Of a stretch of DNA of 64,000 bases, positions 4,709 to 63,581 are shown in pieces. The stretch lies in NCBI GenBank assembly GCA_003647275.1, contig QMMN01000004.1, positions 1,337 to 65,336 on the forward strand, given 5' to 3'. Within the stretch, counting starts at the first letter, position 1, and each line of letters opens with the position of its first letter. Under the pieces are notes generated by a model, which had not been told where the DNA came from, made no database searches, and saw nothing but the letters and a program-made list of their open reading frames with translations. A program made the position numbers and the translations under genes. Source of the DNA: Deltaproteobacteria bacterium. GTDB taxonomy: Bacteria; Desulfobacterota; Desulfobacteria; Desulfobacterales; C00003060.

Positions 4709-4747
4709 AGGCGACCTTGTTTTCAGATAACAAGTTGTTAAGGCGTG

Positions 4748-4782
4748 AAAAAGCCCGACCTGTTACCAGGTCGGGCTTTTTT
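4748..4782. terminator. Bidirectional intrinsic terminator between trkA and the convergent permease
   Basis: AAAAAGCCCGACCTG-TTAC-CAGGTCGGGCTTTTTT perfect stem with A and T tails. Confidence 0.85.
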
Positions 4783-4810
4783 GCCTGTAAGCTTGTTCTG
4801 CCGAGAGCTT

Positions 4811-8639: not shown

Positions 8640-8840
8640 GTCATTAGTCATTGGTCATTGGTCATTTGGCCGATGCCGGATGCCTGATGTCTGAAGCTCC
8701 AAGGCCAGATGCCTCTTATCACTGATCATTTCAAGACAGAACCTCCAACCAATGACAAATGACAAGTGACAAATGACCAATGACAAGTGACCAATGACAA
8801 GTGACCAATGACAAGTGACCAATGACAAGTGACCAATGAC
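8640..8840. repeat. Bipartite inverted heptamer array (GTCATT(A/G/T) x4 ... (A/C)A(A/G)TGAC x13)
   Basis: Left arm 8640-8669; right arm 8750-8840 includes a perfect 14-bp unit CAATGACAAGTGAC repeated ~4.5 times. Confidence 0.9.
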
Positions 8841-9731: not shown

Positions 9732-9824
9732 AAACTTTTTCTTTGACATCCCACCAAAAATGCAGTAATTACAACTCTTATAGGGTCTTCCCTGCCCATA
9801 TACTACCAACCGAAAGGGTTTATC

Positions 9825-18303: not shown

Positions 18304-18457
18304 ATCGTGAATCGTGAACCGGAATGTGGAAACTCGATGTTCGATGCCGGATGCCCGATGCCTCTTGTCACTGGTCATTCAAGACACGACCCGCAACGAA
18401 TGACGAATGACAAGTGACTAATGACGAATAACGAATAACGAATAACGAATGACGAAA
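18290..18457. repeat. Composite heptamer array (TCGTGAA, CGATG(C/T)(C/T), AATGACG/AATAACG) sharing a core with the 8640-8840 element
   Basis: GATGCCTCTTGTCACTGGTCATTCAAGACACGACC (18357) versus GATGCCTCTTATCACTGATCATTTCAAGACAGAACC (8708). Confidence 0.85.
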
Positions 18458-44498: not shown

Positions 44499-44696
44499 AT
44501 GCTGACAACAAACAAGGAAGTCAAAGCAAGGATTCTCGAGCTGTACGATGAACTATTTTCTCATAATGGGTATGGCGAGATGAAGGTGGAGATAAGAATA
44601 CTGCGCCGGAGGCAGAAGGAGATCATCATCCACTGCGGCAAACAGTATCGTTTTGTAGTAGATTACGAGAATAGGGGTCGCACCAAATTCGCTTGA
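44499..44696 (+). CDS. Small hypothetical protein (helix followed by beta strands)
   Basis: LELYDELFSHNGYGEMKVEIRILRRRQKEIIIHCGKQYRFVVD; reads as protein-like; stop overlaps the kinase start. Confidence 0.65.
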   Translation: MLTTNKEVKARILELYDELFSHNGYGEMKVEIRILRRRQKEIIIHCGKQYRFVVDYENRGRTKFA

Positions 44697-45751: not shown

Positions 45752-46417
45752 CTATACTACCTGAGACAAGCTTTTCACTTCATTCACATAGAATTCTTTG
45801 ATTTCGAGCCAGTCGCAAGAAGCTATCATGCTTGGCATGGGCTCCTTTTCGGCATCATCAAAATAGCACAGGCTTCGAAGAATATGATTCGTGTTAAATT
45901 GAACCCCAACATATTTTCGTGGGAGTTCCGGGATGAGAGAGTGGATTGGTTTGAATTTCTTGGCGACAAAAAACAGATCGATGAAATCCTTTATGGATCC
46001 TCGTTGGAAAATCGCCACTATTTTCATCAAGGCGATATCAAGTACAGAAGCCACGTGGAGGCCATTCCATTCAATCAAGGGCTCCAACAACCTGTAAGGA
46101 TATTCAAATAAACTTATACGTACGCGATCAAGATCGCCGATGATAGTCCCCTTTCCCGTTTGGTCAAGTCGGAGATCTCCTATAGTCCTTAGATAATTGA
46201 TTATCGTCATTTCTTCGAAGCCTGATTGAGTAAACAAATCAAGGTCTATGGAGGTCCGGTGGCCCAGATGTAAGGCAAGAGCCGTCCCTCCTGCAAGATA
46301 GAAAGGGCTCAGCCACGGGCGGCCTTTGATTTTCTCGATCAGCCTGCCGGTATCGGGTGAAAGGGTTTCTGAAAACAACGGATTTCTCTTCTTGAAATGC
46401 TTAACAGAATTGCCCAA
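45752..46417 (-). CDS. AbiEii-family nucleotidyltransferase toxin (type IV TA); probable start TTG 46378
   Basis: FYLAGGTALALHLGHRTSIDLDLF, DIALMK, RGSIKDFIDL. Confidence 0.9.
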   Translation of the reverse strand: MGNSVKHFKKRNPLFSETLSPDTGRLIEKIKGRPWLSPFYLAGGTALALHLGHRTSIDLDLFTQSGFEEMTIINYLRTIGDLRLDQTGKGTIIGDLDRVRISLFEYPYRLLEPLIEWNGLHVASVLDIALMKIVAIFQRGSIKDFIDLFFVAKKFKPIHSLIPELPRKYVGVQFNTNHILRSLCYFDDAEKEPMPSMIASCDWLEIKEFYVNEVKSLSQVV

Positions 46418-46659
46418 AGGTTTGCTGTGCGCGGGGAGAGCCTGCGACTTGATTTAACAACTTTTCTAATGGCTTCATCCCCGATGATTTGCCTCAAAAA
46501 TCGGACATCTTTCCATTGTCCATATTCCAGTACGCGCTCAATGGTGTGGTCCGGCCAATCAAGAAGTTCACGACCTGTAAATCGACTATCCCAGAAATAG
46601 GCCCTGAAATGGTCTGGGAGTAATCTTTGAGATTTCTCTGTTGATTTGGTATCATCCAT
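46339..46659 (-). CDS. Cognate antitoxin-like protein (DUF6922-like)
   Basis: RAYFWD...TIERVLEYG...LSPRTANLW; overlaps the toxin start. Confidence 0.75.
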   Translation of the reverse strand: MDDTKSTEKSQRLLPDHFRAYFWDSRFTGRELLDWPDHTIERVLEYGQWKDVRFLRQIIGDEAIRKVVKSSRRLSPRTANLWAILLSISRREIRCFQKPFHPIPAG

Positions 46660-46734: not shown

Positions 46735-46921
46735 ATGGAATAATGGAATGTTGGAATAATGGAATGTTGGGTTTTGCGAGATTTTGCGAGTTTGTAATAA
46801 TGCAAGCAAATTGGCCTCATGATCGTTGGGTTTCGTTCCTCAACCCAACCTACAAAATCTGAACCCATTATTCCAACATTCCATTATTCCAATATTCCAA
46901 TTGGGGCGAAGCCCCTAAGTT
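46735..46921. mobile_element. MITE-like element of inverted octamer arrays with a nested GTAG-type REP
   Basis: GGAATAAT/GGAATGTT repeats versus ATTATTCC/AACATTCC repeats; end GGGGCGAAGCCCCTAAGTTC; minus-strand GTAGGTTGGGTTGAGGAACGAAACCCAACG at 46824-46853. Confidence 0.7.
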
Positions 46922-47066: not shown

Positions 47067-47095
47067 TTGACATGGAATTCGCGTCGTGTTATTGA
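47067..47095 (+). promoter_or_regulatory. Sigma-70 promoter candidate for the pilin cluster
   Basis: TTGACA-17 bp-TATTGA with upstream A-tracts. Confidence 0.5.
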
Positions 47096-47183
47096 GCATG
47101 TAACTCAATTAGGATAAGCGTTTTATCTAAAGGAACTCCTTACGGTCTTTTGTTCCCGCAGTGGCGGGAAGCAGGAGAAAGTG

Positions 47184-47230
47184 AAGGCGTGACTTGGATT
47201 GCGGAAAGCAGTCTGGTTGCGCCTTTTTTT
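47184..47230 (+). terminator. Intrinsic terminator/attenuator inside the pilin-cluster leader
   Basis: AAGGCGTGAC-TTGGATTGC-GGAAA-GCAGTCTG-GTTGCGCCTT followed by a T run; G-U pairs work only on the + strand. Confidence 0.65.
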
Positions 47231-47249
47231 GTGGTCATGTTTGTGAGTG

Positions 47250-47359
47250 GTCAGTAGTCAGTGGCTTCGACAGAGGCGAATCATATGTCGTCCAAATGAC
47301 AGATAACAGACGACAGATGACCAATGACAAATAACCAATGACAAATGACAAATGACAAA
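47250..47359. repeat. Inverted heptamer array (GTCAGT(A/G) ... AATGAC(A/C))
   Basis: Same unit family as 8640-8840 and 56092-56222. Confidence 0.8.
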
Positions 47360-47508
47360 CCGAAAGGAGGTGATGGGGAGCAGGTTGATGCCCCTGTCGC
47401 TGCGGGTGCGAAGGTAAACTAGGAATCAAGAATCTTAGCGGGCAGGCTCTGTGGGGGAGGCGTCTCGCAAGGGAAAGAACAAAACAGAAAAATTAGGAGA
47501 AGCAAAAC

Positions 47509-48510
47509 ATGAAAGCAAGAAATCAGAAAGGTTTTACCCTGCTTGAGATGCTGGTGGTCCTCATGGTCATGGGATTCCTGCTTGCCATGATCGCCCCGAG
47601 GCTTCTGGGCGTCTTTCAGGGTGCAGAGGATGACATTTGCGACACGAACATCAAAGAGTCCAAAAAGTACGTGGCAGCCTTTGAGATGAATTACAACAAG
47701 CTGCCCGATAAGATGATTGTTCCCGGGTACAATGATACTGCTGGCACATGGTATGGGCCAACCGAGGAAAATATAACTGCAGAAGGCAATGAGGTATTTA
47801 CAACTGCCATCCTGGAGCGGATCAGGCTCATGCCCCATACCCTGAACGCGGATGAGATTGATGAGATCATGAATGACCTCGGGATTCGTGAGGTAGTGGT
47901 GCTCAATAACCCGGATGATATCCAGGCAGCAGCTAAGAATGACATTTGGGGTAATGCACTTCCTACTACTGGTACCACTGAGGATAGTCAATTTAAACTA
48001 ATAACGCTTGACCCAACTGCAACGTATACCTGGCCTATGATCGGCGCTGGTGATGCTGCTGGTGATGGTACAGGCTGGGCTGCTCATGCTGATTGGGATA
48101 CAGCCGCAAACGACGGAACCATTGGCGATCCAAGATGGGTTTACCGGCTTATTCTGGGCATCGGTCCTGATTGCGAGCTTTTGCACAGGATCGTTGCGGC
48201 TGAAGGGACATGCCCGAGCTTTGAGAGGGCAGCAGCAGACGATACCATGTGGGGCTGGTACGTAGTGGTTCTGCCACGTTTAGAGAATACTGTGGCAAAA
48301 CTCGTAGCTAACCCCGGCATGATTCAGGAGGTAACATGCGCGGCTGAGGATAACACTGACGCAACAGCACAGAGAAAGACGTTTGATTTGAGCGAGGTGG
48401 ACGAGGAGTACAAGAGGGCTGCTTTTGACGTCTTTTGCCCGGAAGGCCACAGGTATCCTGAAGTGGTAGAGGTGTGGCAGGTTGATGGTGTTGCTCCTGT
48501 CAGATTCTAA
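47509..48510 (+). CDS. Long (333-aa) type IV pilin-like protein, candidate major subunit
   Basis: Class III signal KG|FTLLE; acidic C-terminal domain with five Cys; followed by a terminator. Confidence 0.85.
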   Translation: MKARNQKGFTLLEMLVVLMVMGFLLAMIAPRLLGVFQGAEDDICDTNIKESKKYVAAFEMNYNKLPDKMIVPGYNDTAGTWYGPTEENITAEGNEVFTTAILERIRLMPHTLNADEIDEIMNDLGIREVVVLNNPDDIQAAAKNDIWGNALPTTGTTEDSQFKLITLDPTATYTWPMIGAGDAAGDGTGWAAHADWDTAANDGTIGDPRWVYRLILGIGPDCELLHRIVAAEGTCPSFERAAADDTMWGWYVVVLPRLENTVAKLVANPGMIQEVTCAAEDNTDATAQRKTFDLSEVDEEYKRAAFDVFCPEGHRYPEVVEVWQVDGVAPVRF

Positions 48511-48527
48511 TCTCTGCTAACAACCAC

Positions 48528-48556
48528 GGGGCGGGGAAATTCCCCGCCCCTTCTTT
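48528..48556 (+). terminator. Intrinsic terminator after the first pilin
   Basis: GGGGCGGGGA-AAT-TCCCCGCCCC-TTCTTT. Confidence 0.75.
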
Positions 48557-48567
48557 ATGAGGAAGCC

Positions 48568-49662
48568 ATGTCCTTTGTCTTGCGCTTTTTTCTTTTTGTA
48601 CACTTTGTCTTTCTTGGCGCACTTTCCGGCACCGCCTTTTCCGCCGCAACGGACGAGCGGATTGCTGTTATTGAGATATACAATCAAAAGGGAAAGGTGA
48701 TCGGAAAAGAAGCGGGTGTATTTGTCTCAAAAGATGAGGTCCTTACCCACTACTATGTATTTTCCGGTGTGGATAAGGCTATATTGCGTGCAGGTGGCAA
48801 GGCCTTTCAGATAAAAGGGATCTCAGGGAGAAACAGGGAAAAGAAGCTGCTAAAGATAAAAATAGAGGGTAACGGATTCAGGCCGGCAAGCTTTGGCAGC
48901 AAGATAAAAGAAGGCCAGCAGGTGTTCATAAAGGCGCCGGGGGGCGATCCGGTGAAGGGAAAGGTCGGCTCTTTGGGGGACAGGGCAGAAATTGAGCTGA
49001 GTTCAACTCTTCCCAGGATAAGGGGGCTTCCTGTCTTTGACGAAAAAGATGCGGTCATAGGGATCATAGAATTTTTTTTGAGAAACAAAGATGTCGTCCA
49101 TGCCATTCCACTTTGTGACGGGATCTCATTTGAGCCGCTCGGGCTCTTAAGTATAAGGGAGTGGAGGGAAAAGAGAACCGAGGAGTGGATGGCAAGCGAC
49201 AGGGGAAAAAGGCAGACAATTGTCTATCTTATGGGCATTGGAAAGTACGAAGAGGCAATTCCAAAGCTAGAGGGGCTGATTGAAGAGGCTACCCAGGATA
49301 AAGAGGCGTATTTCAAACTTGGTGTTTGTTATGCAAAACTCGAAAGATACCGACAGGCCCTGGATGCCTATGAGAAATACACGGCCCTTTCGCCCGATGA
49401 TGTAAAGGGCCATTATAATCTTGGTATTTGCCATCTTTTTCTTGATAGACCCAAAGAGGCGCTGGCAGCGTTTAGTGAGGCCATAAGCATAGACAAGAAT
49501 CACCTGAGGTCCCATTATAATCTCGGCATCCTGTATGCGGCTTCAGGGAAAAAGGAAGAGGCGAACAAAGAGTATGAGTTTTTGAAAGGATTTAATTCAA
49601 AAGCGGCAAAGGTGCTTTCGGACAGGCTTTTGGAATACATTGAAAAGGGAAAAGGGCCATGA
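48568..49662 (+). CDS. Exported degenerate trypsin-like domain plus TPR repeats
   Basis: Signal peptide; S1C-like order of elements without catalytic residues; TPRs AYFKLGVCY, GHYNLGICH, SHYNLGILY. Confidence 0.7.
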   Translation: MSFVLRFFLFVHFVFLGALSGTAFSAATDERIAVIEIYNQKGKVIGKEAGVFVSKDEVLTHYYVFSGVDKAILRAGGKAFQIKGISGRNREKKLLKIKIEGNGFRPASFGSKIKEGQQVFIKAPGGDPVKGKVGSLGDRAEIELSSTLPRIRGLPVFDEKDAVIGIIEFFLRNKDVVHAIPLCDGISFEPLGLLSIREWREKRTEEWMASDRGKRQTIVYLMGIGKYEEAIPKLEGLIEEATQDKEAYFKLGVCYAKLERYRQALDAYEKYTALSPDDVKGHYNLGICHLFLDRPKEALAAFSEAISIDKNHLRSHYNLGILYAASGKKEEANKEYEFLKGFNSKAAKVLSDRLLEYIEKGKGP

Positions 49663-50615
49663 ATAAAAAAGGCTTCACCATGCTGGAACTCCTCTGGGTG
49701 ATAGTGATCATAGGCTTTCTGACGGCCATGATCGCCCCGAGGCTCGGCGGGGTGTCTGAAAGGGCCGAAGAAAGTATAAACGAGGCAAACCTTAAGGATA
49801 CAAAGAAGTACGTGGAGACATTCCAGGATGAAAATGCCGGGGATTTTCCGAATCATCTGATCAATTTGGTGCTGGCCGATGATGACGGGATTGCTGCTGC
49901 GGTCGGAGATTGCATCATGGCAACGGTGGAAGATCGCACGAATCAGGTCATGGAAAGCATTTCGTACGATTTCTCTGACCGGTTGCTTTTGAGCGAGCAT
50001 GTGTTGAGCGCGAACGAGGCAGCCGAACTTCTGGCCATGGGTGTTAGCGTGGTCCTTTCCTGGAACCATCCGGATGACCCGAACTATGTCTCTGCCACGC
50101 ACTGGAATCGATATGACTGGGTGGATGTGGCGGCAGGCGTAATGGTGGTCATGATCGGCGGCGGCGCAGCAGACAGCGCTGTAGACATAACCGCCCATGG
50201 CGACTTTGATGCGCTGGGAGAAGAAATCGGCAACCCTGACTGGCTTTACAGGATTGTCGCCGGCATCGGTCCTGATTGCGAGCTGGTCACCGAAGACTAT
50301 GTCGAGGCCGCGCCTTTGTGCCCGGCGGGGCTGAATAACAGGCATTATTTTTACAACTACTACAGCATTGTCCTGCCCAGGCTTGCCGCAACAGTGAACG
50401 GCCGTTTCGGGGCACTTCCTTTTGACGACGATGACGGGGACGGCTATCTCGATTTCGATGTGATCGATGCGAGCGACACCACAGACGGCCAGATAAAAAG
50501 AATCCAGTTAAAACCGATGACAGGCACCCAGTTTGATATCTGCAATGCCACAGGTCACGGCCGGCAGGAGGATGTGAAGTGGTGGCAGCTCTACGATAAT
50601 GGTGATGGGTTGTAG
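49659..50615 (+). CDS. Second long (318-aa) pilin-like protein, paralog of 47509
   Basis: KG|FTMLE; shared AMIAPRL, KKYV, W.YR...GIGPDCEL, VLPRL..TV, FD.C..GH. Confidence 0.85.
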   Translation: MNKKGFTMLELLWVIVIIGFLTAMIAPRLGGVSERAEESINEANLKDTKKYVETFQDENAGDFPNHLINLVLADDDGIAAAVGDCIMATVEDRTNQVMESISYDFSDRLLLSEHVLSANEAAELLAMGVSVVLSWNHPDDPNYVSATHWNRYDWVDVAAGVMVVMIGGGAADSAVDITAHGDFDALGEEIGNPDWLYRIVAGIGPDCELVTEDYVEAAPLCPAGLNNRHYFYNYYSIVLPRLAATVNGRFGALPFDDDDGDGYLDFDVIDASDTTDGQIKRIQLKPMTGTQFDICNATGHGRQEDVKWWQLYDNGDGL

Positions 50616-50706
50616 GGAAAAAAAGTGAACACATAAGTAAACAAACAGGCTGAAGGCACAGGGCAAAAGGCGCAAGGGCAAAAGAAAGAATATGCGCGGG
50701 AGAAAA

Positions 50707-51303
50707 ATGACCAACAAAGGATTTACTCTGGCCGAAATTATTGTAGTCCTTTTCATCGTTGGTTTCCTGATTGGCTCGGTAGCCCTGGTGGTGGGACGAA
50801 CCCAGGAGAGAGGGGCAGTGATCACTACCTTGAGCGAAATGAATAACATCAAGAAGACCATCAGGGAGCGTTTTTACCCGGATCTGGGCCTCATCCCCGA
50901 AGATGCGGCTGATCCTGAGTACGCCACAAGATATCTTTGTCTTAAAAATGACGGCGCCGGGAATCCGGAGTATCAGGAGATGCGAAACTTCCTGGGAAGT
51001 GACAACCTCATGGTATGGGACAAGTATGTCAGAAAAGGCTGGCGTGGTCCCTACATGGAGCCGGATACCCGCTACCATGATCTCGTTGATGACGAGTGGT
51101 ATCCTGTGCTCACCGATTCATGGAAGAATTACTACCACATTTTGATGAACCCAGCCCAGGACAAAGATTCCGCTCGGATTGTCAGTTTTGGGGCAAACGG
51201 CCTGGATGAAGGGGGGACCATCCTGCCGGTGCCGGCGGATATTGGTGATGACATTGTGATGTTTGTCTTTGGCGGGGGAGAGGCGAGGAGTCCGCTTGAT
51301 TGA
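50707..51303 (+). CDS. GspG-like pseudopilin
   Basis: KG|FTLAE; GWRGPYM, DSWKN, SFGANG..GG...GDDI. Confidence 0.8.
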   Translation: MTNKGFTLAEIIVVLFIVGFLIGSVALVVGRTQERGAVITTLSEMNNIKKTIRERFYPDLGLIPEDAADPEYATRYLCLKNDGAGNPEYQEMRNFLGSDNLMVWDKYVRKGWRGPYMEPDTRYHDLVDDEWYPVLTDSWKNYYHILMNPAQDKDSARIVSFGANGLDEGGTILPVPADIGDDIVMFVFGGGEARSPLD

Positions 51304-51335: not shown

Positions 51336-52265
51336 GTGAATATGGGGAACAATCCTGAACCAAAGTCCATTTTCTCACCCGCCCACCTGCCCACCCGCTT
51401 CGCTTCCGGCTTCACCCTACTTGAGCTTGTGGTGGTTCTGACCATCATCGGGTTTCTGGTGATGATCATGACCGGGGTCTATTCCGGCGAGGATGACCAG
51501 AAGCGCTTTGAGCAGACCCGCGAGCAGATGGAGGAAATCAGAAAGGCACTCCTTGGCAGTGATGGCACTTATGCCAGCGGCCAGAGGCGGTTTGCCGGGT
51601 ATATTGCAGATATGGGTGGGTTGCCCGCACTGGTGGATGTTCTTGGCACGCCGGGTGATACAAGCGATGACCAGCCAGAAGGGCTCTGGGATCAGGGCGG
51701 CCTTCCTGACTGGGAACATAAAGCTGCTTCAAGGACCTGGATGGGGTGGCGGGGGGCCTACATTGAGGCCCCGCCAGGTAACGTGCTGAAAGACGGCTGG
51801 GGCAATCCCCTTGTCTTTTCCGTTGCCAATGGAGACATGACCATTAAAAGCTACGGGGCAGATGGTGCGGAGGATACAGGCGGGGAGACGGGTTTTGATG
51901 AGGATATTACCTTGATCATCAACAACACCGAGTATCTGGCCCCCGTGGCCGGGCGGGTAACCGGTTTTGCTCCTGGTAATGAGGCAAACATAAGGGTGCT
52001 ACTCTACATTGCTAGTGACGGCAGTGAAGTTGCACTCACCATGGATGTTGGCGTGCCATCGGACGGCTATTTTCGTTTCGAGCCTCGCGACCCGGCAGAG
52101 CCGGACCCGGAACCGGCAGGTAGTGGAAGGAAGTACGCCAGTATACCCACAGGGATAAGGAGCATTTACGCCTTTGATGTAACCAGCCCTCCAGCCAGTC
52201 CCAGCCCCATGGTTTTCACAGTGGAGTCCACAGGGAACTGGATTGGGGAGATAGAGATTCAGTAG
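51336..52265 (+). CDS. GspG-like pseudopilin with C-terminal beta domain
   Basis: SG|FTLLE; GYIADMGGLP, GWRGAYI, DGWGNP, SYGADG; start uncertain. Confidence 0.8.
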   Translation: MNMGNNPEPKSIFSPAHLPTRFASGFTLLELVVVLTIIGFLVMIMTGVYSGEDDQKRFEQTREQMEEIRKALLGSDGTYASGQRRFAGYIADMGGLPALVDVLGTPGDTSDDQPEGLWDQGGLPDWEHKAASRTWMGWRGAYIEAPPGNVLKDGWGNPLVFSVANGDMTIKSYGADGAEDTGGETGFDEDITLIINNTEYLAPVAGRVTGFAPGNEANIRVLLYIASDGSEVALTMDVGVPSDGYFRFEPRDPAEPDPEPAGSGRKYASIPTGIRSIYAFDVTSPPASPSPMVFTVESTGNWIGEIEIQ

Positions 52266-52283: not shown

Positions 52284-53312
52284 TTGAGCGATTCCTTAAT
52301 CTTCGGTTGCAGTGCTTTGATTTTAAAGCGGACAATTAAAAATGACCGTGGACTTGTCCTTGTCTCGGCAGCATTGATGCTGACGGCTTTAGTGAGTGTT
52401 GTCCTGGTATGTTTTTTTGTCCTCGGACATGGGGCAGGTAACGACCTTCGGTACCAGGCGACGCGCCGCCGTATGCACGACGTTAAACGTGCCCTGTTGG
52501 GGCGTCTGGCAGATGCCCGGGGCGGAAAAGACATCACGGCCTGTGGGGGTTTTATAAGCGATTATGGAGAGCCTGATGATATGACTCCATTTGCACCCGG
52601 CACGGATAATTTCGTAGGGGTTCTACTCAACCGGCAGAGCGTGGCGGCCTGGCAGGGGTGGTCCTATAGTGGTTCACCAGAACAATTCTGGGCTGGATAC
52701 AGGAGTGATCGTTACTTAACACCCTCACCTGGTGAATGGAGCGATGATCCTCCGTTTCCCCATGACCTGCGAGACGGATGGGGATATCCGATTGAAGTCA
52801 AATTTATTCAGGATTCAACACCTGAACATACAGTCATAGAGATAAAGAGCCACGGGAGCGACGGGCTGACCGGGGGGGGCGGAAACTACAAGGAGGATGT
52901 AGAAGAGGCCTTTTACTGGAAAAGAAGTCTGCATGTAATATTTCAGCTCGATGCAACGGGACTCGGTCTTCCCGATGGTACTGACGTGGATGTTGAAGCT
53001 CGCACGGTTTATCCCTTCCGGGGAAATGTTGCCACAAAGGATCAGACTGTGACCATAACTGTGAACAGCGGCATCGGTAGTGGGGTCTACGATTTCCCGA
53101 TAGCGCCGCCCGGCAACATGGATCCCACAAAGTTTCCTGTTGGCTCAAGAAAGATAATCTGGACCTTAAAGACAGATCTCAGCCCCTGGGGCGGGCCGAC
53201 TGCAGATACGTTATTGGCCACCAGAATGGTCTTGATCCCGGCCAGTCCGGTGACTTCAAGTCCACCGGGACCGCCCCGTACATATAGCATTAGTATGCAG
53301 GTTACGATTTAG
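52284..53312 (+). CDS. PilX/GspK-like minor pilin lacking Glu5, with a GspG-type motif
   Basis: RG|LVLVS hydrophobic helix; DGWGYP, SHGSDGLTGGGG. Confidence 0.65.
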   Translation: MSDSLIFGCSALILKRTIKNDRGLVLVSAALMLTALVSVVLVCFFVLGHGAGNDLRYQATRRRMHDVKRALLGRLADARGGKDITACGGFISDYGEPDDMTPFAPGTDNFVGVLLNRQSVAAWQGWSYSGSPEQFWAGYRSDRYLTPSPGEWSDDPPFPHDLRDGWGYPIEVKFIQDSTPEHTVIEIKSHGSDGLTGGGGNYKEDVEEAFYWKRSLHVIFQLDATGLGLPDGTDVDVEARTVYPFRGNVATKDQTVTITVNSGIGSGVYDFPIAPPGNMDPTKFPVGSRKIIWTLKTDLSPWGGPTADTLLATRMVLIPASPVTSSPPGPPRTYSISMQVTI

Positions 53313-53489: not shown

Positions 53490-55019
53490 ATGACAAATAT
53501 TTCCGGAATCTTTTCCGCTCTTCGATCCAGAGTTCCCTCAACGTCACCAAAAAAAGTGATATCGATTCATATAGGAAGGAATTCTCTGAAAGCGGTAGTT
53601 GTCAGAAGGGACCGAAAGAGACTCGTAATTGTGTCAGCCGCACAGGTAGAGACAGATACGGAGGCGACCTATGATCTCAACAAGATCGGCCGGGCGCTGA
53701 GCAATCTCTTAAATGAGCTGGGTTCTTACCCGAAAGACGGGATCATAGTGACCGATCAGGTTAAATTCCTGGCCAGTGAACTGCCGATCCCGCCCGGCAA
53801 GAAGCTGCCTGAGGAGAGGCTGGCAGCGGCAGTGGCATGGGAGATGGAACCCTATATCGATTTTGTCGTCCAGGAAGGCCTTTTCGCATATCGGCTGCAA
53901 CAGGACAGAACCAGCACGGATAACACCCCTGTGCTGATATCAGCCATGGGGAAAAGCGAATTTGAAGCAATTTCTGAGATCTTGAAGGACTTTCGCATAT
54001 CGCTGTCCCATGCCTATTCGCCTGATGGTGCCTTTGCCTTTGCGTCAGAGGTGCGAGGCGATGCGGAAAATAGAATCGTCATAAGCTGTCAGCACAGTGC
54101 CATAACCGCTTTGTTCTTGAGTACGACTTCGGAAGCCTTTGTCTTGAAAGCAATTCCTGTCGAGCCGGGCTTTCATATTGCTGTCATAGAAACCATTCCT
54201 GTCGAGCCGGGCGTTCCTCTTGATCAACAAATAAAACGGGTGGTTCATGAGTTAACGGGCTCCATCGGCGAGGCAAAGGAGGTGGTTGTTGCCGGAGACC
54301 TGGCCTCAGAGGAACTTATCGATCAGCTCAAGGCGGAACTGAGCACAGAGGTAACAATCTGGAAGCCCGAGGAAAATCTCAAGGGATTTGGCATAACACT
54401 TGAGACCGGAGACATGGGTCCCGCTTATGCTGCAGCAATGGGCGCGGCCGTGCAGGAGCTAGGACTTGTGGGAAGGCCCCTGGGCGTTACCGACAAGATT
54501 CCTTTGATTAAGAGGGTCAGGGAAAGGGTACATCTGGCGCCGGCTGTGGCTCTGGCCACCGTCATTTTGTGCTTTATCGGCCATTACGCATTTGTAAAGA
54601 GTCGCATCGGGCATTACACCTCAGAGGTCAAGGAGCTGGAGCAAAAAAAGAAGGTGTTTACCCGGTTGCGAGATGAAAGGACAAGACTTACTTCAAGACA
54701 GAAGGATATCGCCGGGAAAAAGAGATATCTCGAAAACCTGCCGGAACGCCAGAAAAACCTTGTTCTTCTCCTGAGCGGGATTCCCGACCTCCTCCCTGAC
54801 ACGATGGTGCTGGAAAATATTATCCAGGAGGATGCTACCAGTTTCTCTATTGCGGGCTCCGCTTTACAGGCAAGCTCCATCGGCCTTTTTGCGAATCAAC
54901 TTTCCCGGCTGGAAGCCGGAAAACAGGTAACGGTAAAGGCTATAACGAAACAAGATGAGAGCAAGGAAAAAGGGAGATTGCCATATGGTTTTTCAGTGGA
55001 ATTGACCCTGAAGGAGTAG
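53490..55019 (+). CDS. PilM-PilN fusion / GspL-like assembly protein
   Basis: Actin-like N-terminus (ISIHIGRNSLKAV, AVAWEMEPYI), one TM, PilN-like C-terminus (IPDLLPDTMVL...FSIAGSA). Confidence 0.75.
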   Translation: MTNISGIFSALRSRVPSTSPKKVISIHIGRNSLKAVVVRRDRKRLVIVSAAQVETDTEATYDLNKIGRALSNLLNELGSYPKDGIIVTDQVKFLASELPIPPGKKLPEERLAAAVAWEMEPYIDFVVQEGLFAYRLQQDRTSTDNTPVLISAMGKSEFEAISEILKDFRISLSHAYSPDGAFAFASEVRGDAENRIVISCQHSAITALFLSTTSEAFVLKAIPVEPGFHIAVIETIPVEPGVPLDQQIKRVVHELTGSIGEAKEVVVAGDLASEELIDQLKAELSTEVTIWKPEENLKGFGITLETGDMGPAYAAAMGAAVQELGLVGRPLGVTDKIPLIKRVRERVHLAPAVALATVILCFIGHYAFVKSRIGHYTSEVKELEQKKKVFTRLRDERTRLTSRQKDIAGKKRYLENLPERQKNLVLLLSGIPDLLPDTMVLENIIQEDATSFSIAGSALQASSIGLFANQLSRLEAGKQVTVKAITKQDESKEKGRLPYGFSVELTLKE

Positions 55020-55027
55020 GCACAGAG

Positions 55028-55591
55028 ATGGCCAGGAGAAAACTGACAAAGCTTGAGCAGATAGGGATTGTAGTGATGGTAGGAGTTGTGGGATTGTTTT
55101 TCTACCTCAAGCTCGTCTATGATCCTACTATGAAAAAATACTCTGCCATCCGGAAGAAATGGGTAAAGCTTTTCAATGAGGTAGCAGTGCTTGAAGACGA
55201 AGAGATGGCGGCCAGGGGGGCCGAGGGCCTGGCGGAACGGCTGAAAGAGCTGGAGCAGGACCTGCGCAACGCTGAAACAACTCTGGTCAAGGATGTTGAT
55301 AGCGCAGACAGTCTGATGATCAATGTCTTGAAGGTAGCGGAGAAGAATAACCTTGAGGTAGCCAGCTATGAATCACTGGATATCACCAGGGTTAAGGAGA
55401 TAATCAAATCGCTCTTTTATCAGAGGAGATACTACGACGTGCTGTTGAGAGGGAGCTACGGAGATCTTATTGCCTTCCTGACAGAAATCAGCTCACTGCC
55501 TCAACTCATAACCGTAGAAAAGATCGACATCAGGCATGAGGGTAGGGGCGAAAATGGTTCTTTGGATGTGGCTTTGTTGTTTGGTATATGA
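55028..55591 (+). CDS. pilO: PilO/GspM-like protein
   Basis: N-terminal TM, coiled coil, LRGSYGDLIAFLTEISSLPQLITV. Confidence 0.75.
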   Translation: MARRKLTKLEQIGIVVMVGVVGLFFYLKLVYDPTMKKYSAIRKKWVKLFNEVAVLEDEEMAARGAEGLAERLKELEQDLRNAETTLVKDVDSADSLMINVLKVAEKNNLEVASYESLDITRVKEIIKSLFYQRRYYDVLLRGSYGDLIAFLTEISSLPQLITVEKIDIRHEGRGENGSLDVALLFGI

Positions 55592-55609
55592 GTCAGTGGT
55601 TAGTGGTCG

Positions 55610-56083
55610 GTGGTCAGCGGATATCCAGTAAGGAGAATCTCAATGTTGCAGAAATATTTCTTTGCTCCTTTTTTGCTTTTGTGCCTGATTTTCTCGTGTC
55701 CACCCATAGGGTCGGTCAGGGCTGAGAAGAATTTGCCAGAAAAGGGGAGCGATCACACGGCAGAGGTGCGAGATCTAAAAAGAGACCCTTTTGAGCTAAC
55801 TCCTGCACTGCAAGATTACATTAAGGCCCGGAATCCCGATACGACCCCGCGGGACTTCGAACCTACCAAAGTCAAAGTCACCGGCATCATGATCGTCAGG
55901 GACAGGATAATGGCCACGGCAGAGATCGAGCAAATCGGAGAGATGGCTTTAAAACCCGGAATGCAGGTAAATGTGACGAAAAAGGATACCCCGGCGATTT
56001 CCTTTACGGTTAAGGAGATTTCCAGTAGAGGGGTAGTCGTCGTTTTCGAAAATGGAGATGAAGTGCTGTATGAGTATGAATAG
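55610..56083 (+). CDS. PilP/GspC-like periplasmic protein
   Basis: Signal or TM segment, RDPFEL motif, short beta-rich C-terminus; lies between pilO and the secretin. Confidence 0.55.
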   Translation: MVSGYPVRRISMLQKYFFAPFLLLCLIFSCPPIGSVRAEKNLPEKGSDHTAEVRDLKRDPFELTPALQDYIKARNPDTTPRDFEPTKVKVTGIMIVRDRIMATAEIEQIGEMALKPGMQVNVTKKDTPAISFTVKEISSRGVVVVFENGDEVLYEYE

Positions 56084-56091
56084 TGGTAAAT

Positions 56092-56222
56092 TGTCATTGG
56101 TCATTAGTTATTGGGTATTCGGTATTGGTGACTGGTTATTGGTTATTGATCAGTAGTCAGTGGCCAGTGACAAATGACGAATGACAAATGACGAATGACA
56201 AATGACGAATGACAAATGACAA
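56092..56222. repeat. Inverted heptamer array (GT(C/T)ATT(G/A) ... AATGAC(A/G) x~9)
   Basis: Direct reading of the sequence. Confidence 0.9.
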
Positions 56223-56246
56223 AACGGTCAGGGAAGGAAGTATGGT

Positions 56247-58127
56247 TTGCATTTGACTGGGGTTCGGAAGAGGATTGGTTTCATCAGGTTTGGTAGAGTC
56301 GGTTTCTTCTTATTCGCATTTTTCATCACTTTTCACCTTTCGTTTCTTCATATCCCCTGTGGCCCGGGCATGGCAAAAGCCGGGAAAAAGGCAACAGCTT
56401 CAAAAAAAGAGAACCCTGATGAAAAGATCTATTTGTTTGATTTCAAAGAGGCAGCACTCAGCGATGTGCTGAAGGTTTTCACCAAGCTGACAGGAAAGAA
56501 TGTGGTTGCGAACGAGAACATCCGGGATTTCAAGGTGACCATCTTTCTAAAACAGGTTCCCCCAAGGGCTGCCCTGGAGATACTCTGCAAACAGAACAAC
56601 CTCTGGTACAAAGAGGATGATCATCACATACGTCTGATCAAGGTTGAAGACTTTGGCAAGGATATCATTGTAGAGTATGAGGATAACACCAGGGTATTTA
56701 ACTTGAAATACGCCTCTGCCGAGGCAGTGGCCGATGCCATTGCCAGCCTCATGGAAGATAAGGTCGAATACTCCGAACCAGGCGTGACAGAAAGCTATGG
56801 TCAGCTTGGGGCAGGGGCTGGTGCAGGCGGCGGCGCAGGCGCCGGTGGTGCAGGAGCGGGCGGGCGGGGCGGTGCTGGCAGAGGTGGCGGCAGAGGCGCC
56901 GGTGGCGCACGAGGGGGCGGCGGTGGCAGGGGCGCCGCGGTTACCAGAGAGGTTCACATCCCTACTATAGCTGAGGAACTGACGCCAGAGATGGTAAGGG
57001 AGTTCCTAAAAAAAGAGGAGGAAGCGAAGGAGGAAAAACGGGAAATAAAAATCGAGGAGGTACGCAGGATCAAGGTCCCAAGGCCACTGGCCTACATGAC
57101 GGTTTTTTTACCCAACAACAGCATCCTTCTCTATTCAGCCAATAAAAAGATGCTCAAAGAAATTACAAAACTCATCAAGGCACTCGATACGCCTATCCGG
57201 CAGGTTCTGTTGCAGGGAAAGATACTGGAGATAACCCTTACGGATGACTTTACGTCATTGTTTGACTTGAGCTATCAATCAGATGAAATGACGACCCGGA
57301 CTTATCCCGAACCTGCGACAGCTCCCCGTCATTCGGGCGTACTGGGCAGGTTTGGGGATCTGGAAGGGGGCACCCTCCTTTATACCTTTTTCGGCAAAGA
57401 GCTTGAGGCCCGGGTGGAACTGCTCAAAAAGGACGGAAGGGTCAAGACGATCGGCACTCCGATGGTTCTTTCCGCCAATAATGCCCCTGCAAAGTTTTTC
57501 ATCGGCGAAGAACGCCCTGTCGTCACCAATTATGAATTCGAGGTAAGGGATTTTGAAGAGCGAACAACAGAAACAATTCGCCCTGTGATGAGTCTCGAAG
57601 AGATAGGTACAAAACTGGAGGTTATCCCCCGTATCAATGAAAACGGTACAGTCACCATGAGGCTCGTTACGGAGATATCCACGCTGGGCGCCGGGGCAAG
57701 CGTGAGTCAGGTGGACCAGTACGGAAATGTCATTGCCCTGCCGATCGATACGATTGATTCATCTACTGTGGAGGGTATCATCGTGGCGAACAACGAAGAG
57801 ACCGTAGCTATTGGCGGACTTCTGCGCGAAGAAGACAGCGTAGTCGAAAACAAGGTCCCCTGTCTGGGAAGTATTCCGCTGTTAGGGTTTTTCTTCAAGA
57901 AATTTCAATCCATAAAAGAAAAAACTGAAATGGTTCTGCTGATCACCCCCCATATCATGATGAAGCCGGAAGAAGCTGGCGCAGTATCTGAAAGAGTCAC
58001 CAAGGGACTTTCCGAACATCCTTATATCAAGGATGGAAAAGAAAAGCTCCTGAGGTATGACGAAAAAGAAAAGGGACTTGAACCGCTGACAGAGGAGCCT
58101 GGGATAGAAGAGCGGTCGATGAGATGA
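56247..58127 (+). CDS. Secretin (GspD/PilQ family) with a Gly/Ala/Arg-rich loop
   Basis: LSDVLKVF, FNLKYASA, QVLLQGKILEI, IGTKLEVIPRIN, VAIGGLL, KVPCLGSIPLLGFFF, EMVLLITPHI. Confidence 0.92.
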   Translation: MHLTGVRKRIGFIRFGRVGFFLFAFFITFHLSFLHIPCGPGMAKAGKKATASKKENPDEKIYLFDFKEAALSDVLKVFTKLTGKNVVANENIRDFKVTIFLKQVPPRAALEILCKQNNLWYKEDDHHIRLIKVEDFGKDIIVEYEDNTRVFNLKYASAEAVADAIASLMEDKVEYSEPGVTESYGQLGAGAGAGGGAGAGGAGAGGRGGAGRGGGRGAGGARGGGGGRGAAVTREVHIPTIAEELTPEMVREFLKKEEEAKEEKREIKIEEVRRIKVPRPLAYMTVFLPNNSILLYSANKKMLKEITKLIKALDTPIRQVLLQGKILEITLTDDFTSLFDLSYQSDEMTTRTYPEPATAPRHSGVLGRFGDLEGGTLLYTFFGKELEARVELLKKDGRVKTIGTPMVLSANNAPAKFFIGEERPVVTNYEFEVRDFEERTTETIRPVMSLEEIGTKLEVIPRINENGTVTMRLVTEISTLGAGASVSQVDQYGNVIALPIDTIDSSTVEGIIVANNEETVAIGGLLREEDSVVENKVPCLGSIPLLGFFFKKFQSIKEKTEMVLLITPHIMMKPEEAGAVSERVTKGLSEHPYIKDGKEKLLRYDEKEKGLEPLTEEPGIEERSMR

Positions 58128-58199
58128 TGAATTACAAGTCGACTGTGGACTGTCGACGGTCGACAGTCCACAGTCAATACCCAATGACCAATGACAAAA

Positions 58200-59278
58200 T
58201 GACAAATGACAAGACGGACATACTCGAGCTTCTGAAAACAACCGTCGAAAAAGGGGCCTCTGATCTGCACCTCACGGCAGGCAGCCCACCCATGGTTCGC
58301 ATCTTCGGGGACTTGACGCCCGTTGGCAGAAAGAAGCTTTCCCCTGAAGACACCAGGGAAATGGCTATGAGTATCCTGTCTGCTAAACAAAAAGAGGTAT
58401 TTGAGCAAAACCGTTCCATTGACCTGGCGTACAGCCTCGACGGAGCATGCCGCCAGGCAGGCCGTTTTCGCGTGAATGCCTTTTATCAAAGGGGCCGGGT
58501 AAGCGTGGCTTTTCGGAGACTTTCGGATGAATTTCTCACTCTTGAAGAGCTTTGTCTTCCCTCGACCCTCTATAATCTCGCGCAACTGCGGGACGGGCTC
58601 GTGCTCGTCACGGGGCCGACAGGCTCCGGAAAGACCACTACTTTGGCCTCGCTCCTGGATATGATAAATCAGACCAGGCCATGCCATATCATTACTATCG
58701 AAGATCCTATCGAATACGTCCATGAGCACAAGAAAGCGATTGTCAATCAGAGAGAGCTTTACAGCGATGTTGCCTCCTTCGGGGAGGCCCTCCGGTATGC
58801 CGTCAGAGAAGATCCGGATGTTATCCTGGTTGGTGAAATGAGAGACCTTGATACCATGCGGACTGCGATCATGGCGGCAGAGACAGGCCATCTGGTTTTT
58901 TCTACCCTGCATTCCCGGGATGCGGTATCCACTATAAATCGCGCCATAGGTGTTTTCCCTATTGACGAACAGCAACTTATAAGACAGCAGCTTTCCATGA
59001 CATTAAAGGCCGTGGTCTCGCAAAGGTTGCTTCGACGTTCAGACACGCCGGGCCTGGTGCCTGCCGTGGAGGTAATGATAGTGACATCGGCAATAAGCAA
59101 CTTGATTCGCACAGGCAAAGATGAACAGATCTATTCTGCCATTGAGACCGGCGGGGTGCTCGGCATGCAGACCATGGAGGAATCCCTTTGTACTCTTTGT
59201 CGAGCAGGAAAAATTGCCAGAGAGGCAGCTTTGAAAACGGCAAAAAGCGTGAGGCTTGTAGAGCACCGGTTAAGGTGA
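58200..59278 (+). CDS. pilT: Retraction ATPase PilT (start approximate; the upstream in-frame extension is heptamer repeats)
   Basis: ASDLHL, GPTGSGKTTT, TIEDPIE, PDVILVGEMRD, TGHLVFSTLH, AISNLIR, GMQTME. Confidence 0.92.
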
Positions 59279-59284
59279 CCTTTT

Positions 59285-59382
59285 TCACCCTCACCTAACC
59301 TCCCCCGTCAAGTGGGAGGAACCGAGAGATGGTCTGCCTCTCTTTCCCCTCCCCTGGCGGGAGGGGTTAGGGGAGGGGGTAG
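59285..59382. repeat. Pair of REP-like palindromes (CCCTCACCTAACCTCCC ... GGGAGGGGTTAGGGAGGGG)
   Basis: Inverted C-rich and G-rich arms, each with an inner hairpin. Confidence 0.7.
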
Positions 59383-59426
59383 CCAAAAGCAGGTGGTGCA
59401 CCCAAAGTCAGGTACTCAATTGAGGG

Positions 59427-61160
59427 GTGGTGAGAGAGAGGACGATGGCCGAAAGACAGGATAAGGTGATCATAGGCAGGGCACTGATAGAGAAGAATAA
59501 GAAGCTCCTTGGGCAGGCCCTGGTAGAAAAGCGGGTTATTAATGAACACCAGCTCAACGAAGCCCTTAAGGTGCAGGCCAGGACACGGGAACTTTTGGGC
59601 GCAATTCTTATAAAGATGGGCCACTTGACCGAGGAAGACGTTGCCCGTGCCATAGCCGATTCCTTTGACTTGGATTACATTGACCTCGAGGAGGCAGAGG
59701 TGGAATCGAATGCCCTCGAAAGCATCCCCTCCGCCCTCGCCCGGCGCCATGGCGTCCTGCCACTGTGGATAGAAAACAACACCCTGCATATCGCCTGCGA
59801 CAAGCCACCGCCGGTCCAGGTACTTGGAAACCTGCGGCGGCTGACAGGCAAACAGATTGTCATCCATATTGCCACTACCTCGCCCCTCTGGGCTTTACTC
59901 AAGGATGCATATGAGGGGGCAGACATTTCATCAAGTACAGCGGCCTCCAGTTCAACAAACCCCCTCCTTGCGGAAGTGGCGGAAGAGGAAGCTGATATAG
60001 AGCAATCTGTTATCCAGCTCCTTGACGAGTTTGTTGCCAAGGCCCTTAGAGACAGGGCGTCTGATATCCATTTTGAATCTGCTAAGGAAAGGCTGCGGGT
60101 CAGGTTCCGGGTGGACGGCATACTGCGGGAGGTAGAAACCTATCCCCCTGAGATCAGCCCGCCTCTGGTTTCCAGGATAAAGGTCCTGTCAAATTTGAAT
60201 ATAGCCGAAAAAAGGGCTCCCCAGGATGGAGGCTTCACCTTTGAAAATCCTTTCCAAACCGTGGATATCAGGGTTTCTATACTTCCGAATATTTATGGCG
60301 AAAAAGCTGTCCTGAGACTTCTGACCGCAGAGAAGGAGAAGATCGATTTCGAGCACCTCGGCATGGAAACGGACACAAGCCAGCTTTTTATGTCCCTTCT
60401 AAAGAGGCCCCATGGGCTGATTCTGATAGCAGGTCCCACAGGTTCCGGGAAATCGACCACTCTTTACGCCTCTTTGTTGAGCATCAGGTCGCCGGAGGTC
60501 AATATCACAACGGTTGAGGATCCGGTTGAGTACAAGATTGGAGACATCACCCAGGTCCAGGTGGATCAGGCCAGAAAGATCACCTTTGATAATGCCCTGC
60601 GCTCCATACTGCGGCAGGATCCGGACATCATCATGGTAGGTGAGATCAGGGATCGAGAGACAGCAGAGATATCCCTTCAGGCTGCCCTTACAGGGCACCT
60701 TGTGCTGGCCACAATACATACCAATGACGCACCCAGCGCCCTTGTCCGGCTCGTGGAGATGGGTTGTGAGCCTTTTCTGGTAAGCTCTGCCGTGAGCGGA
60801 GTTATGTCCCAGAGATTGGTGCGCATAAACTGTGAATCGTGCAAAGAAGCGTTTGAACCGACTCCCATTGAACTGAAGAGGTTCGGATACTCAAAATTGC
60901 CGGAAGGCGGACAATGGGCTCGAAGCTCGGGATGCCGGCGGTGCGACAACACAGGTTACAGGGGACGAATCGGTATCTTTGAGTGTTTCAAGATGGATAA
61001 GACTATCCGGCAGGAAGTAATAAAAGAATCATCTGCCGAAAAGATCAGGGAGATCGTCCTACAAAACGGGATGAGGCCCTTGCTGGAAGATGGCCTCTTG
61101 AAGGTAAACAGCGGGCAGACAACCCCCGAGGAGATACTTCGGGTGACTGTGCTGGAGTAG
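59427..61160 (+). CDS. pilB: Extension ATPase PilB/GspE with MshEN-like N-terminus
   Basis: ASDIHFE, RFRVDG, PQDG, GPTGSGKST, VGEIRD, CESC...CRRC zinc motif. Confidence 0.93.
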   Translation: MVRERTMAERQDKVIIGRALIEKNKKLLGQALVEKRVINEHQLNEALKVQARTRELLGAILIKMGHLTEEDVARAIADSFDLDYIDLEEAEVESNALESIPSALARRHGVLPLWIENNTLHIACDKPPPVQVLGNLRRLTGKQIVIHIATTSPLWALLKDAYEGADISSSTAASSSTNPLLAEVAEEEADIEQSVIQLLDEFVAKALRDRASDIHFESAKERLRVRFRVDGILREVETYPPEISPPLVSRIKVLSNLNIAEKRAPQDGGFTFENPFQTVDIRVSILPNIYGEKAVLRLLTAEKEKIDFEHLGMETDTSQLFMSLLKRPHGLILIAGPTGSGKSTTLYASLLSIRSPEVNITTVEDPVEYKIGDITQVQVDQARKITFDNALRSILRQDPDIIMVGEIRDRETAEISLQAALTGHLVLATIHTNDAPSALVRLVEMGCEPFLVSSAVSGVMSQRLVRINCESCKEAFEPTPIELKRFGYSKLPEGGQWARSSGCRRCDNTGYRGRIGIFECFKMDKTIRQEVIKESSAEKIREIVLQNGMRPLLEDGLLKVNSGQTTPEEILRVTVLE

Positions 61161-61258
61161 TTGTCACTGGTCATTGGTCATTGGTCATTCGTAACTTGGT
61201 TTAATGATTGAACATTCAACTAGTCAACTACTCGACTAGTCAACCATTTGACCATTCA
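61161..61258. repeat. Heptamer arrays (GTCATTG; TCAACTA/TCAACCA)
   Basis: Direct reading of the sequence. Confidence 0.8.
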
Positions 61259-61327
61259 ACATTTTTGGTGATGATATTTGACCGAGCAGATAAGGCCTTC
61301 CTAATCGCCAGTACGGGGTATTAAACT

Positions 61328-63200: not shown

Positions 63201-63581
63201 ATGCACACTTTGATCATCAAACTTTTGGCGGCGGGCATCACTCTGGGAATTATTGCAGGCAATTCCGACGAAATCATAAAGTTCTTCAACGATACTGAAA
63301 CAGTCGCACAACAGATTGCTACTGCCGGGGATATGCGAAGTATAAGTACTATGCTGGATTATGAATTCATACGCCGGGGCCGCTATCCCAGGACTGAACA
63401 TTTTGAAAGATGGATGGGGGAAAAATTCAAGGAGAATGACCTTAAACCCTTGACCCAGGACCATTGGGGATATGAGCTTGTTTACAGGGCTACCAAAGAT
63501 CAGAAAAAATACACACTCATAAGCCTTGGGCCTGATGGCATAGAGGGAACAGAAGATGATATCAGGATCACAGGACCATGA
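63201..63581 (+). CDS. GspG C-terminal-domain protein lacking a prepilin cleavage site
   Basis: DHWGYELVY...SLGPDGIEGTEDDI; hydrophobic N-terminus without G|F...E. Confidence 0.7.
   Translation: MHTLIIKLLAAGITLGIIAGNSDEIIKFFNDTETVAQQIATAGDMRSISTMLDYEFIRRGRYPRTEHFERWMGEKFKENDLKPLTQDHWGYELVYRATKDQKKYTLISLGPDGIEGTEDDIRITGP

Follow-up and report, generated by a model that had tools for sequence, protein, structure and literature searches.

The 64,000-bp window analysed here (the whole stretch of contig QMMN01000004.1, assembly GCA_003647275.1, positions 1,337–65,336, from an uncultured Desulfobacterales lineage with a 3.0 Mb, 96% complete genome) contains a type IV pilus-like operon that begins with two very large prepilin genes, here called pil1 and pil2 (Table 1). 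Judged by their sequences, the two proteins are diverged members of an unannotated family of ~300–400-aa type IV pilins with a signal peptide and a GspG-like helix of ~50 residues. The explanation of the locus that we lean towards, if without great confidence in all of its parts at once, is that these are large pilins, that the one in first place would be the major subunit of a filament, that pil1 lies in a swapped cassette, and that the pil1 protein would be held by a metal clamp where pil2 has a calcium-type loop.

A first-pass annotation of this DNA had reported the 333-aa and 318-aa open reading frames as paralogous, very D/E-rich prepilins. Both are indeed present on the + strand and are paralogous over their whole length (32% identity in 337 columns by BLASTP, E = 9e-39). 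The pil1 leader is MKARNQKG, with predicted cleavage at G8/F9 (MKARNQKG/FTLLE; the mature Glu5 is E13), and its N-terminus reads MKARNQKG/FTLLEMLVVLMVMGFLLAMIAP; that of pil2 is MNKKG/FTMLE (MNKKG/FTMLELLWVIVIIGFLTAMIAP). Both are signal peptides of the class III type, with a short basic leader and a hydrophobic stretch of ~20 residues. Pfam N_methyl matches pil1 with E = 1.6e-8 and pil2 with E = 1.1e-4, and the TIGR02532 and N_methyl scores of both exceed the cut-offs. Asp plus Glu make up 15.9% of pil1 and 16.7% of pil2, and the precursors have pI values of 4.36 and 4.17 and net charges of −27 and −34; such acidity is not special to the big pilins, as the adjoining pseudopilin pp309 has a pI of 4.30. 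The motifs that the annotation found in common between the two all lie on columns conserved throughout the family (H110, E116, N133, M177, G179, R213, G217, P236, Y251, P256-R257-L258, T261, and G313). The genome has one prepilin peptidase (Peptidase_A24, contig C22). Its ribosomal protein L2, 88% identical to that of a Desulfobacterales metagenome-assembled genome, places the host in that order.

Resemblance to other pilins is confined to the N-terminal ~75 residues, which are GspG-like: hhalign against Escherichia coli GspG (97.7%) covers residues 5–78 only, and the NCBIfam models (GspG, ComGC, and others) cover only the first ~60 positions and score far under their cut-offs. Pfam finds N_methyl alone in 62 diverse members, and a family profile run against all PDB sequences retrieves only pilin N-terminal helices. 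The AlphaFold2 model of pil1 (pLDDT 86.1, pTM 0.83) has a helix at residues 11–62 followed by an alpha/beta domain of ~270 aa, and that of pil2 (pLDDT 87.0, pTM 0.83) has its helix at residues 8–58; the secondary-structure elements come in the same order in the two models. With neither model did Foldseek return a PDB match at E ≤ 0.001 (best E about 1), and the pil1 model found nothing in BFVD; pilins were reached through the helix only (6xxd and 5vxx, E ≥ 2). Thus the sequence searches and the Foldseek comparisons agree with the first-pass description of the domain as unrecognised. The C-terminal ~270 aa, as modelled, are a compact alpha/beta domain without detectable relatives, and since it was compared with PDB and BFVD the fold may occur in proteins whose structures are unsolved.

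A word-index search recovered 32 clusters at 90% identity, all of 320–365 aa, among whose members the best existing name is "type II secretion system protein." The first-pass annotation had suggested that the distribution of the domain be mapped with a profile; an exhaustive search of 1.84 billion representatives with the family profile gave 99 clusters at 50% identity (E ≤ 1e-30), and about 110 of the matches are full-length proteins of 280–410 aa. The family loci are patchily spread over at least eight phyla, among them Omnitrophota, Auribacterota, Armatimonadota, Thermodesulfobacteriota (Desulfonatronum and Desulfobotulus), Bacillota (Desulforadius, Desulfothermobacter, Ca. Formimonas, and Peptococcaceae), Campylobacterota, Planctomycetota, and Aminicenantes, and the carriers are mostly strict anaerobes. 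Close to the host, the family is present in four of the 37 species of the same genus, but all 24 genomes sampled from the order's other families lack it, so it is an accessory, patchily distributed system; other species of the genus have a single pil2-like pilin immediately 5′ of pp203.

A family member is the first operon gene in every one of the 20+ related loci, in which the shared order is pilin-(TPR)-(pil2)-pp203-pp309-p342-PilMN-PilO-(PilP)-(secretin)-PilT-PilB-PilC. In the window all genes from pil1 to PilC/GspF are co-oriented, and the assembly-machine block spans bp 53,490–62,563 on the + strand. The pp203, pp309, and p342 proteins are probably minor or priming pilins; PDB sequence searches with them assigned no GspH/I/J/K roles and gave helix matches only, or spurious matches to designed armadillo proteins and ribosomal P0 with no qualifying stretch. 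The Bacillota operons lack the secretin gene and have, besides the large pilin, one pilin of ~500–600 aa and no other. The pp309-like pilin is enlarged to 480–980 aa in Bacillota, Armatimonadota, and Desulfobotulus (loci L006, L008, L010–L016, L019, L022, and L025), and there it sits directly 3′ of the large pilin, in place of the window's three separate minor pilins.

The strong terminator that had been noted directly after pil1 is present, and it is strong by folding energy. Its hairpin (bp 48,528–48,550) has 10 pairs, 9 of them G-C, and lies 17 nt 3′ of the pil1 stop codon; the whole element ends 10 nt 5′ of the accessory-gene ATG, just ahead of the ribosome-binding site of that gene. The hairpin alone has a ΔG of −22.1 kcal/mol, and in its 71-nt context the value is −26.6 (z = −3.2). 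When a hairpin of ΔG ≤ −12 with a T-rich tail is sought within 160 nt past the first big pilin gene, it is found in 17 of 23 related loci compared with 23 of 231 control windows (Fisher 4e-11; 11/111 after other cluster genes and 12/120 random windows), and no comparable hairpin lies 3′ of the pil2-type genes. First place in the operon followed by such a hairpin is the classical layout for a major pilin, so the first-position pilin is likely to be the major subunit; it would be the main component of a filament that the adjoining machine builds and retracts, and the hairpin would let pil1 mRNA outnumber that of the downstream genes. The first-pass annotation had argued in the same way from the single terminator; the 17 loci give that logic comparative support, and it fits the Pseudomonas cassette layout discussed below.

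Several points weigh against this role for pil1. By codon adaptation to the ribosomal genes pil1 lies in the 19th percentile and pil2 in the 94th, in a genome where the range is small (mean of 0.810 for the ribosomal genes and 0.794 for the genome). A major subunit could in principle come instead from one of four small conventional pilin genes on contigs C108, C3, and C14, and pil1 and pil2 could form alternative filaments or a heteropolymer. One further gene near the operon, p126 (bp 63,201–63,581, 126 aa), was considered as a hidden small major pilin and rejected. A T2SSG (GspG) domain is clearly recognisable (3.6e-9), the G/F...E prepilin site is missing from an N-terminus that is simply a hydrophobic segment, and the gene recurs in one other locus only, Desulfobotulus alkaliphilus being the one species with an operon-adjacent homolog.

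Comparison with related loci suggests that the pil1 end of the operon has a history different from that of the rest. The window and locus L007 are syntenic on both flanks (the Ser/Thr kinase is 56% and pil2 75% identical), and locus L009 matches the downstream genes (pil2 75%, pp203 77%, and pp309 71%); the first pilin and the TPR gene of these two loci are only 32–35% identical to those of the window. With an Omnitrophota metagenome-assembled genome, on the other hand, the window's pil1 and TPR gene share 72 and 57% identity, and with an Auribacterota one 69 and 57%. Across loci the identities of pilin and TPR gene rise and fall jointly (72/57, 69/57, 67/58, 68/53, 32/33, and 35/32%), so the two form a cognate pair. 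At the DNA level, homology to L007 and L009 begins exactly at bp 49,662, at the pil2 start (74% identity in pil2), and homology to the Omnitrophota and Auribacterota loci (L001/L002) covers bp 47,512–48,485, 48,661–49,429, and 49,555–49,730, ending within the conserved prepilin 5′ coding sequence. From these identities and boundaries we infer that pil1, the hairpin, and the TPR/pseudo-protease gene are a cassette swapped in horizontally; the whole unit would have been inserted in front of a resident pil2. The GC content and codon usage of pil1 and the TPR gene are unremarkable and give no compositional sign of transfer, so the argument rests on synteny and identity. A chimeric assembly was rejected as the source of the junction: the accessory-gene stop codon overlaps the pil2 start (ATGA), the same three-gene layout is present in related genomes, and similarity at the junction is only ~71%.

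This arrangement parallels that of Pseudomonas aeruginosa groups I, III, IV, and V, in which the major pilin gene, a Rho-independent terminator, and a cognate accessory gene are exchanged horizontally as a unit (PMC11841053). The window shares with these cassettes both the pilin-terminator-accessory layout and the swap relative to syntenic relatives, but its cassette stands before a second, resident pilin, and its accessory protein is unlike TfpO/W/X/Y/Z: it combines an apparently inactive trypsin-like domain with TPR repeats in one secreted protein, and is neither a glycosyltransferase nor TfpY-like. In Pfam and NCBIfam the accessory protein matches only TPR families and, weakly, Trypsin_2, with no homology to Tfp accessory proteins; judged by eye, the catalytic Ser and Asp of the trypsin-like domain are seemingly replaced.

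Cysteines were analysed in an alignment of 112 full-length members, with a tree built from 133. Four residues, C44, C235, C310, and H314 (pil1 numbering here and below), occur together in 54 of the 112 members and tend to be gained or lost as a set. Thus C44 and C310 are both present in 60 members, both absent in 43, and discordant in 9 (Fisher 4e-21); the co-occurrence of the tetrad positions gives Fisher values of 1e-12 to 4e-21. Over the tree there are ~20 changes of tetrad state, in which the positions shift jointly, and phylogenetically independent pairs change in the same direction in 7–8 cases and in opposite directions in 0–1. Among the 133 rows, those with all three Cys have His (61), Cys (7), or Asp (3) as the fourth residue, the Cys variants being found in Bacillota and Armatimonadota; His, Cys, and Asp are all metal ligands. 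The next most state-linked positions, D41, E312, F309, and D45, adjoin the putative ligands, some along the helix and some within the C310 loop.

The best reading of these conserved residues is a Cys3-His metal clamp in pil1, a predicted but probable site. In pil1 and roughly half of the family the four residues would together coordinate a single ion, either Zn2+ or some other thiophilic metal, and the bound ion would tie helix alpha1-C to the C-terminal strands; in strict anaerobes such a clamp would replace the C-terminal disulfide of the aerobic type IVa (T4a) pilins and the Ca2+ of GspG. Two facts speak against it, namely that pLDDT around C235 is just 66–74 and that Cys3His metal sites are uncommon in Sec-exported proteins. 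If the site is real, it would be a third way to lock a pilin C-terminus, besides disulfides (in aerobes) and Ca2+ (in GspG), and one suited to reducing habitats where disulfides cannot form. The tetrad is also a simple sequence marker that divides the family, and the cultured carriers (Desulfobotulus alkaliphilus, Desulfonatronum thiodismutans, Desulforadius tongensis, Desulfothermobacter acidiphilus, and Candidatus Formimonas warabiya) make the metal-clamp hypothesis testable; the first two of these have the CCCH form of the tetrad and D. tongensis has CCCC. A reading of Cys-x3-His as a degenerate heme CXXCH motif or as part of an Fe-S cluster was considered but judged improbable in a pilin exported by Sec. 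We consider it very improbable that the thiophilic metal at the centre is redox-active (Fe, Ni, or Cu) and not a structural Zn, which would make the filament a helical array of extracellular metal-thiolate centres; such a redox-metal metallo-pilus would be new in sulfate reducers, syntrophs, and Omnitrophota, and could be used for extracellular electron exchange or metal/sulfide sensing. The Clostridioides difficile pilin PilJ reportedly has a structural Zn on Cys, although reviews do not mention it. Elsewhere in the host genome, contig C108 (bp 4,534–5,091) encodes two tandem small pilins (~107–116 aa) with a helix KCDxNI motif, a VCPYGD motif, and a C-terminal SHSH; the helix Cys motif recalls the C44/D45/N47 group of the large pilins.

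In pil2 the equivalents of C44 and C310 are missing, and only C221 and H299 (C235 and H314 of pil1) are retained; the pil2 clade reads N-C-N-H at the four tetrad positions. The DDDDGDGYLD segment that had been singled out in pil2 as a DxDxDG loop is real and belongs to an acidic loop, FDDDD[GLS]DG[YW]xD[FV]DV[IV]D, that every one of the six pil2-clade sequences shares; it fits the DxDxDG calcium-binding motif. By sequence, then, pil2 has lost the putative Cys3-His site and bears this loop instead, probably as a Ca2+ site. It recalls the Ca2+ site of GspG that takes the place of a disulfide.

The first-pass annotation had called the globular domain "Cys-stapled"; that it is held by disulfides, like the D-region of T4a pilins, we regard as quite improbable. 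C222 (in the GPDCEL motif) is linked to a Cys at column 252 (15 members have both; odds ratio 5.4, p = 5e-4), so disulfides are possible in subsets of the family; Cys counts are even in the Bacillota CCCC variants, and two small pilins elsewhere in the genome combine a similar helix Cys (KCDxNI) with one C-terminal Cys. However, pil1 and pil2 have only two Cys columns in common, C222 and C235, and the former varies independently of the tetrad (C in 34, S in 48, and N in 19 of the 112 members). The numbers of Cys do not suit stapling either: pil1 has five Cys, 19 of the 54 tetrad-bearing members have exactly three, and nine family members have none at all. The fourth co-varying residue is, as said, His, Cys, or Asp, and searches of the host genome for DsbA, DsbB, VKOR, and Thioredoxin_4 found no homolog although control genomes were positive; most carriers, moreover, are strict anaerobes. 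Covariation as Cys3 plus His, Cys, or Asp, odd or zero Cys numbers, and a host without Dsb or VKOR thus argue together against disulfide staples, and that part of the earlier description is not upheld.

Two other explanations concern what the large pilins do rather than how they are held together. They might be low-abundance tip or adhesin pilins, comparable to the modular minor pilins of Streptococcus sanguinis, on a filament whose body is a small pilin encoded elsewhere; we think this unlikely. Modular minor pilins are typically of this size (PMC10191384), and the small pilins of contigs C108, C3, and C14 and the low codon adaptation of pil1 point the same way, but no pilin-like gene of <200 aa is present in any of the 26 related operons, and the slots for minor pilins are already filled by three other pilin-like genes. 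First position and a conserved terminator are, moreover, the layout of a major pilin, and since Pfam is empty beyond the helix in the 62 members the extra domain is not a graft known outside pilins. A shade less likely again is that the cluster encodes a type II secretion system (T2SS), in which the big pilin would assemble into a short pseudopilus within the periplasm, and not an external pilus, and drive substrates through the secretin. The gene order does resemble gspG-H-I/J-K-L-M-(C)-D...E-F, the secretin has GspD as its best model (1.8e-55), the pilin N-terminus is GspG-like, and PilM and PilN are fused as in GspL. Yet a PilT-type retraction ATPase is kept inside the operon in the 20+ loci, a secretin-less version of the operon exists in Bacillota, and a first pilin that is replaced by allelic cassettes suggests a protein exposed at the cell surface. 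The full GspG model (TIGR01710) scores only 40.9 bits on pil1 and 39.4 on pil2 (cut-off 88.85), both over the N-terminal 61 positions only, and the T2SSG domain (PF08334), which is found in pp309 and p126, is absent from pil1 and pil2. A filament with the first-position pilin as its major subunit remains the reading that we prefer.

GspG (TIGR01710, PF08334) nevertheless resembles pil1 and pil2 in its short leader, its G/FTLLE site, and its helix followed by an LP motif. Its C-terminal loop is reportedly stabilised by Ca2+ and not by a disulfide, and this metal-for-disulfide logic is the one proposed here for the large pilins; but GspG has ~135–145 aa compared with 313–325 aa for the mature large pilins, whose putative ligands are Cys/His and not carboxylates and whose operon contains PilT. 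Like the genes of the T4a major pilins PilA and PilE, pil1 comes first in its operon, is followed by a terminator, and is accompanied by PilB/PilT/PilC/PilMNO/secretin machinery. Those T4a pilins have ~140–210 aa and a disulfide in the D-region, whereas the present proteins have ~320 aa when mature, match the T4a fold only in the helix, and have no paired C-terminal disulfide. Solved major pilins in the PDB search range from 61 to 208 aa, the largest being Myxococcus xanthus PilA (8tj2, 208 aa), and to our knowledge no major pilin subunit of known structure exceeds about 210 aa. Type IV filaments are very widespread as prokaryotic machines go; if the proteins of this family are major subunits, they would form the largest class of major pilins, with a new globular fold, in mostly uncultured anaerobes of at least eight phyla, served by a distinctive PilT-containing machine with a GspG/GspL flavour.

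Unusually large pilins are known in other systems. C. difficile PilJ has structure beyond the canonical fold (PMC4471445), and S. sanguinis PilB and PilC are large and modular (PMC10191384). PilJ is a duplicated pilin fold and PilB/PilC bear grafted known domains, and all are minor pilins, unlike the role proposed for pil1; neither PilJ nor PilB/PilC was found among the sequence and fold matches of the large pilins. Pairs of major pilins that one machine serves also have precedents: Thermus thermophilus PilA4 and PilA5 form alternative filaments (PMC7203116), and S. sanguinis PilE1 and PilE2 form a heteropolymer (PMC10628169). By comparison with these, pil1 and pil2 are only 32% identical, and one of them appears to have been acquired horizontally with its own accessory gene.

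Table 1. Features of the large-pilin locus (positions in the window)
Feature	Position (bp)	Strand	Description
Shine-Dalgarno AGGAG	47495..47499	+	9 nt 5′ of the pil1 ATG; read from sequence
pil1	47509..48510	+	333-aa prepilin; mature 325 aa, 35.9 kDa, pI 4.26
C44 codon	47638..47640	+	Helix alpha1-C; proposed metal ligand 1
C235 codon	48211..48213	+	CPSFER motif; proposed ligand 2
C310-P-E-G-H314 loop	48436..48450	+	Proposed ligands 3 and 4
Intrinsic terminator or attenuator	48528..48558	+	Hairpin GGGGCGGGGAAATTCCCCGCCCC then tail TTCTTTAT
Accessory gene	48568..49662	+	Secreted 364-aa protein; weak trypsin-like N-domain (Trypsin_2) and C-terminal TPR repeats
pil2	49659..50615	+	318-aa prepilin; mature 313 aa, pI 4.10
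DxDxDG-type acidic loop	50421..50468	+	FDDDDGDGYLDFDVID; pil2 residues 255–270; candidate Ca2+ site
pp203	50692–51303	+	Pilin-like gene
pp309	51336–52265	+	Pilin-like gene with T2SSG domain
p342	52284–53312	+	Pilin-like gene
PilM-PilN fusion	53490–55019	+	
PilO	55028–55591	+	
PilP-like protein	55610–56083	+	157 aa
GspD-type secretin	56247–58127	+	Best model GspD, 1.8e-55
PilT-like ATPase	58124–59278	+	
PilB/GspE	59427–61160	+	T2SSE
PilC/GspF	61328–62563	+	T2SSF

Upstream of the operon, an untranslated leader of ~440 nt (bp 47,067–47,508) runs from a TTGACA-type box at bp 47,067 to the pil1 start and has a T-run after a G-rich stem near bp 47,200–47,230; an Rfam scan of the whole window gave no family at the gathering score and no known riboswitch or leader. 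Farther upstream, a 65-aa open reading frame (bp 44,499–44,696; MLTTNKEVKARILELYDELF...) has DNA that is 71–75% conserved upstream of the operon in L001 (bp 9,628–9,781) and L007 (bp 5,312–5,469), and it may encode a small regulator or partner of the system. Between the Ser/Thr kinase gene and the pilin leader lie an AbiEii nucleotidyltransferase toxin gene (PF08843, 2.2e-14) and its DUF6922 partner (bp 45,752–46,659, − strand). The pair looks like an insertion, since in L007 the kinase gene directly precedes the pilin gene, and the region is flanked by GGAATAATGGAATGTTGG-type inverted repeats (about bp 46,740–46,900).

Tandem arrays of the heptamer (ATGACNA)n occur at bp 47,317–47,358, 56,091–56,222, 58,184–58,212, 8,752–8,786, and 18,400–18,413, and the window has 16 matches to a 14-mer where 0.05 are expected. 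The arrays inside the cluster precede pil1, precede the secretin gene, and precede or enter the annotated start of pilT, and the same arrays are present in the intergenic DNA of at least seven other contigs of the genome.

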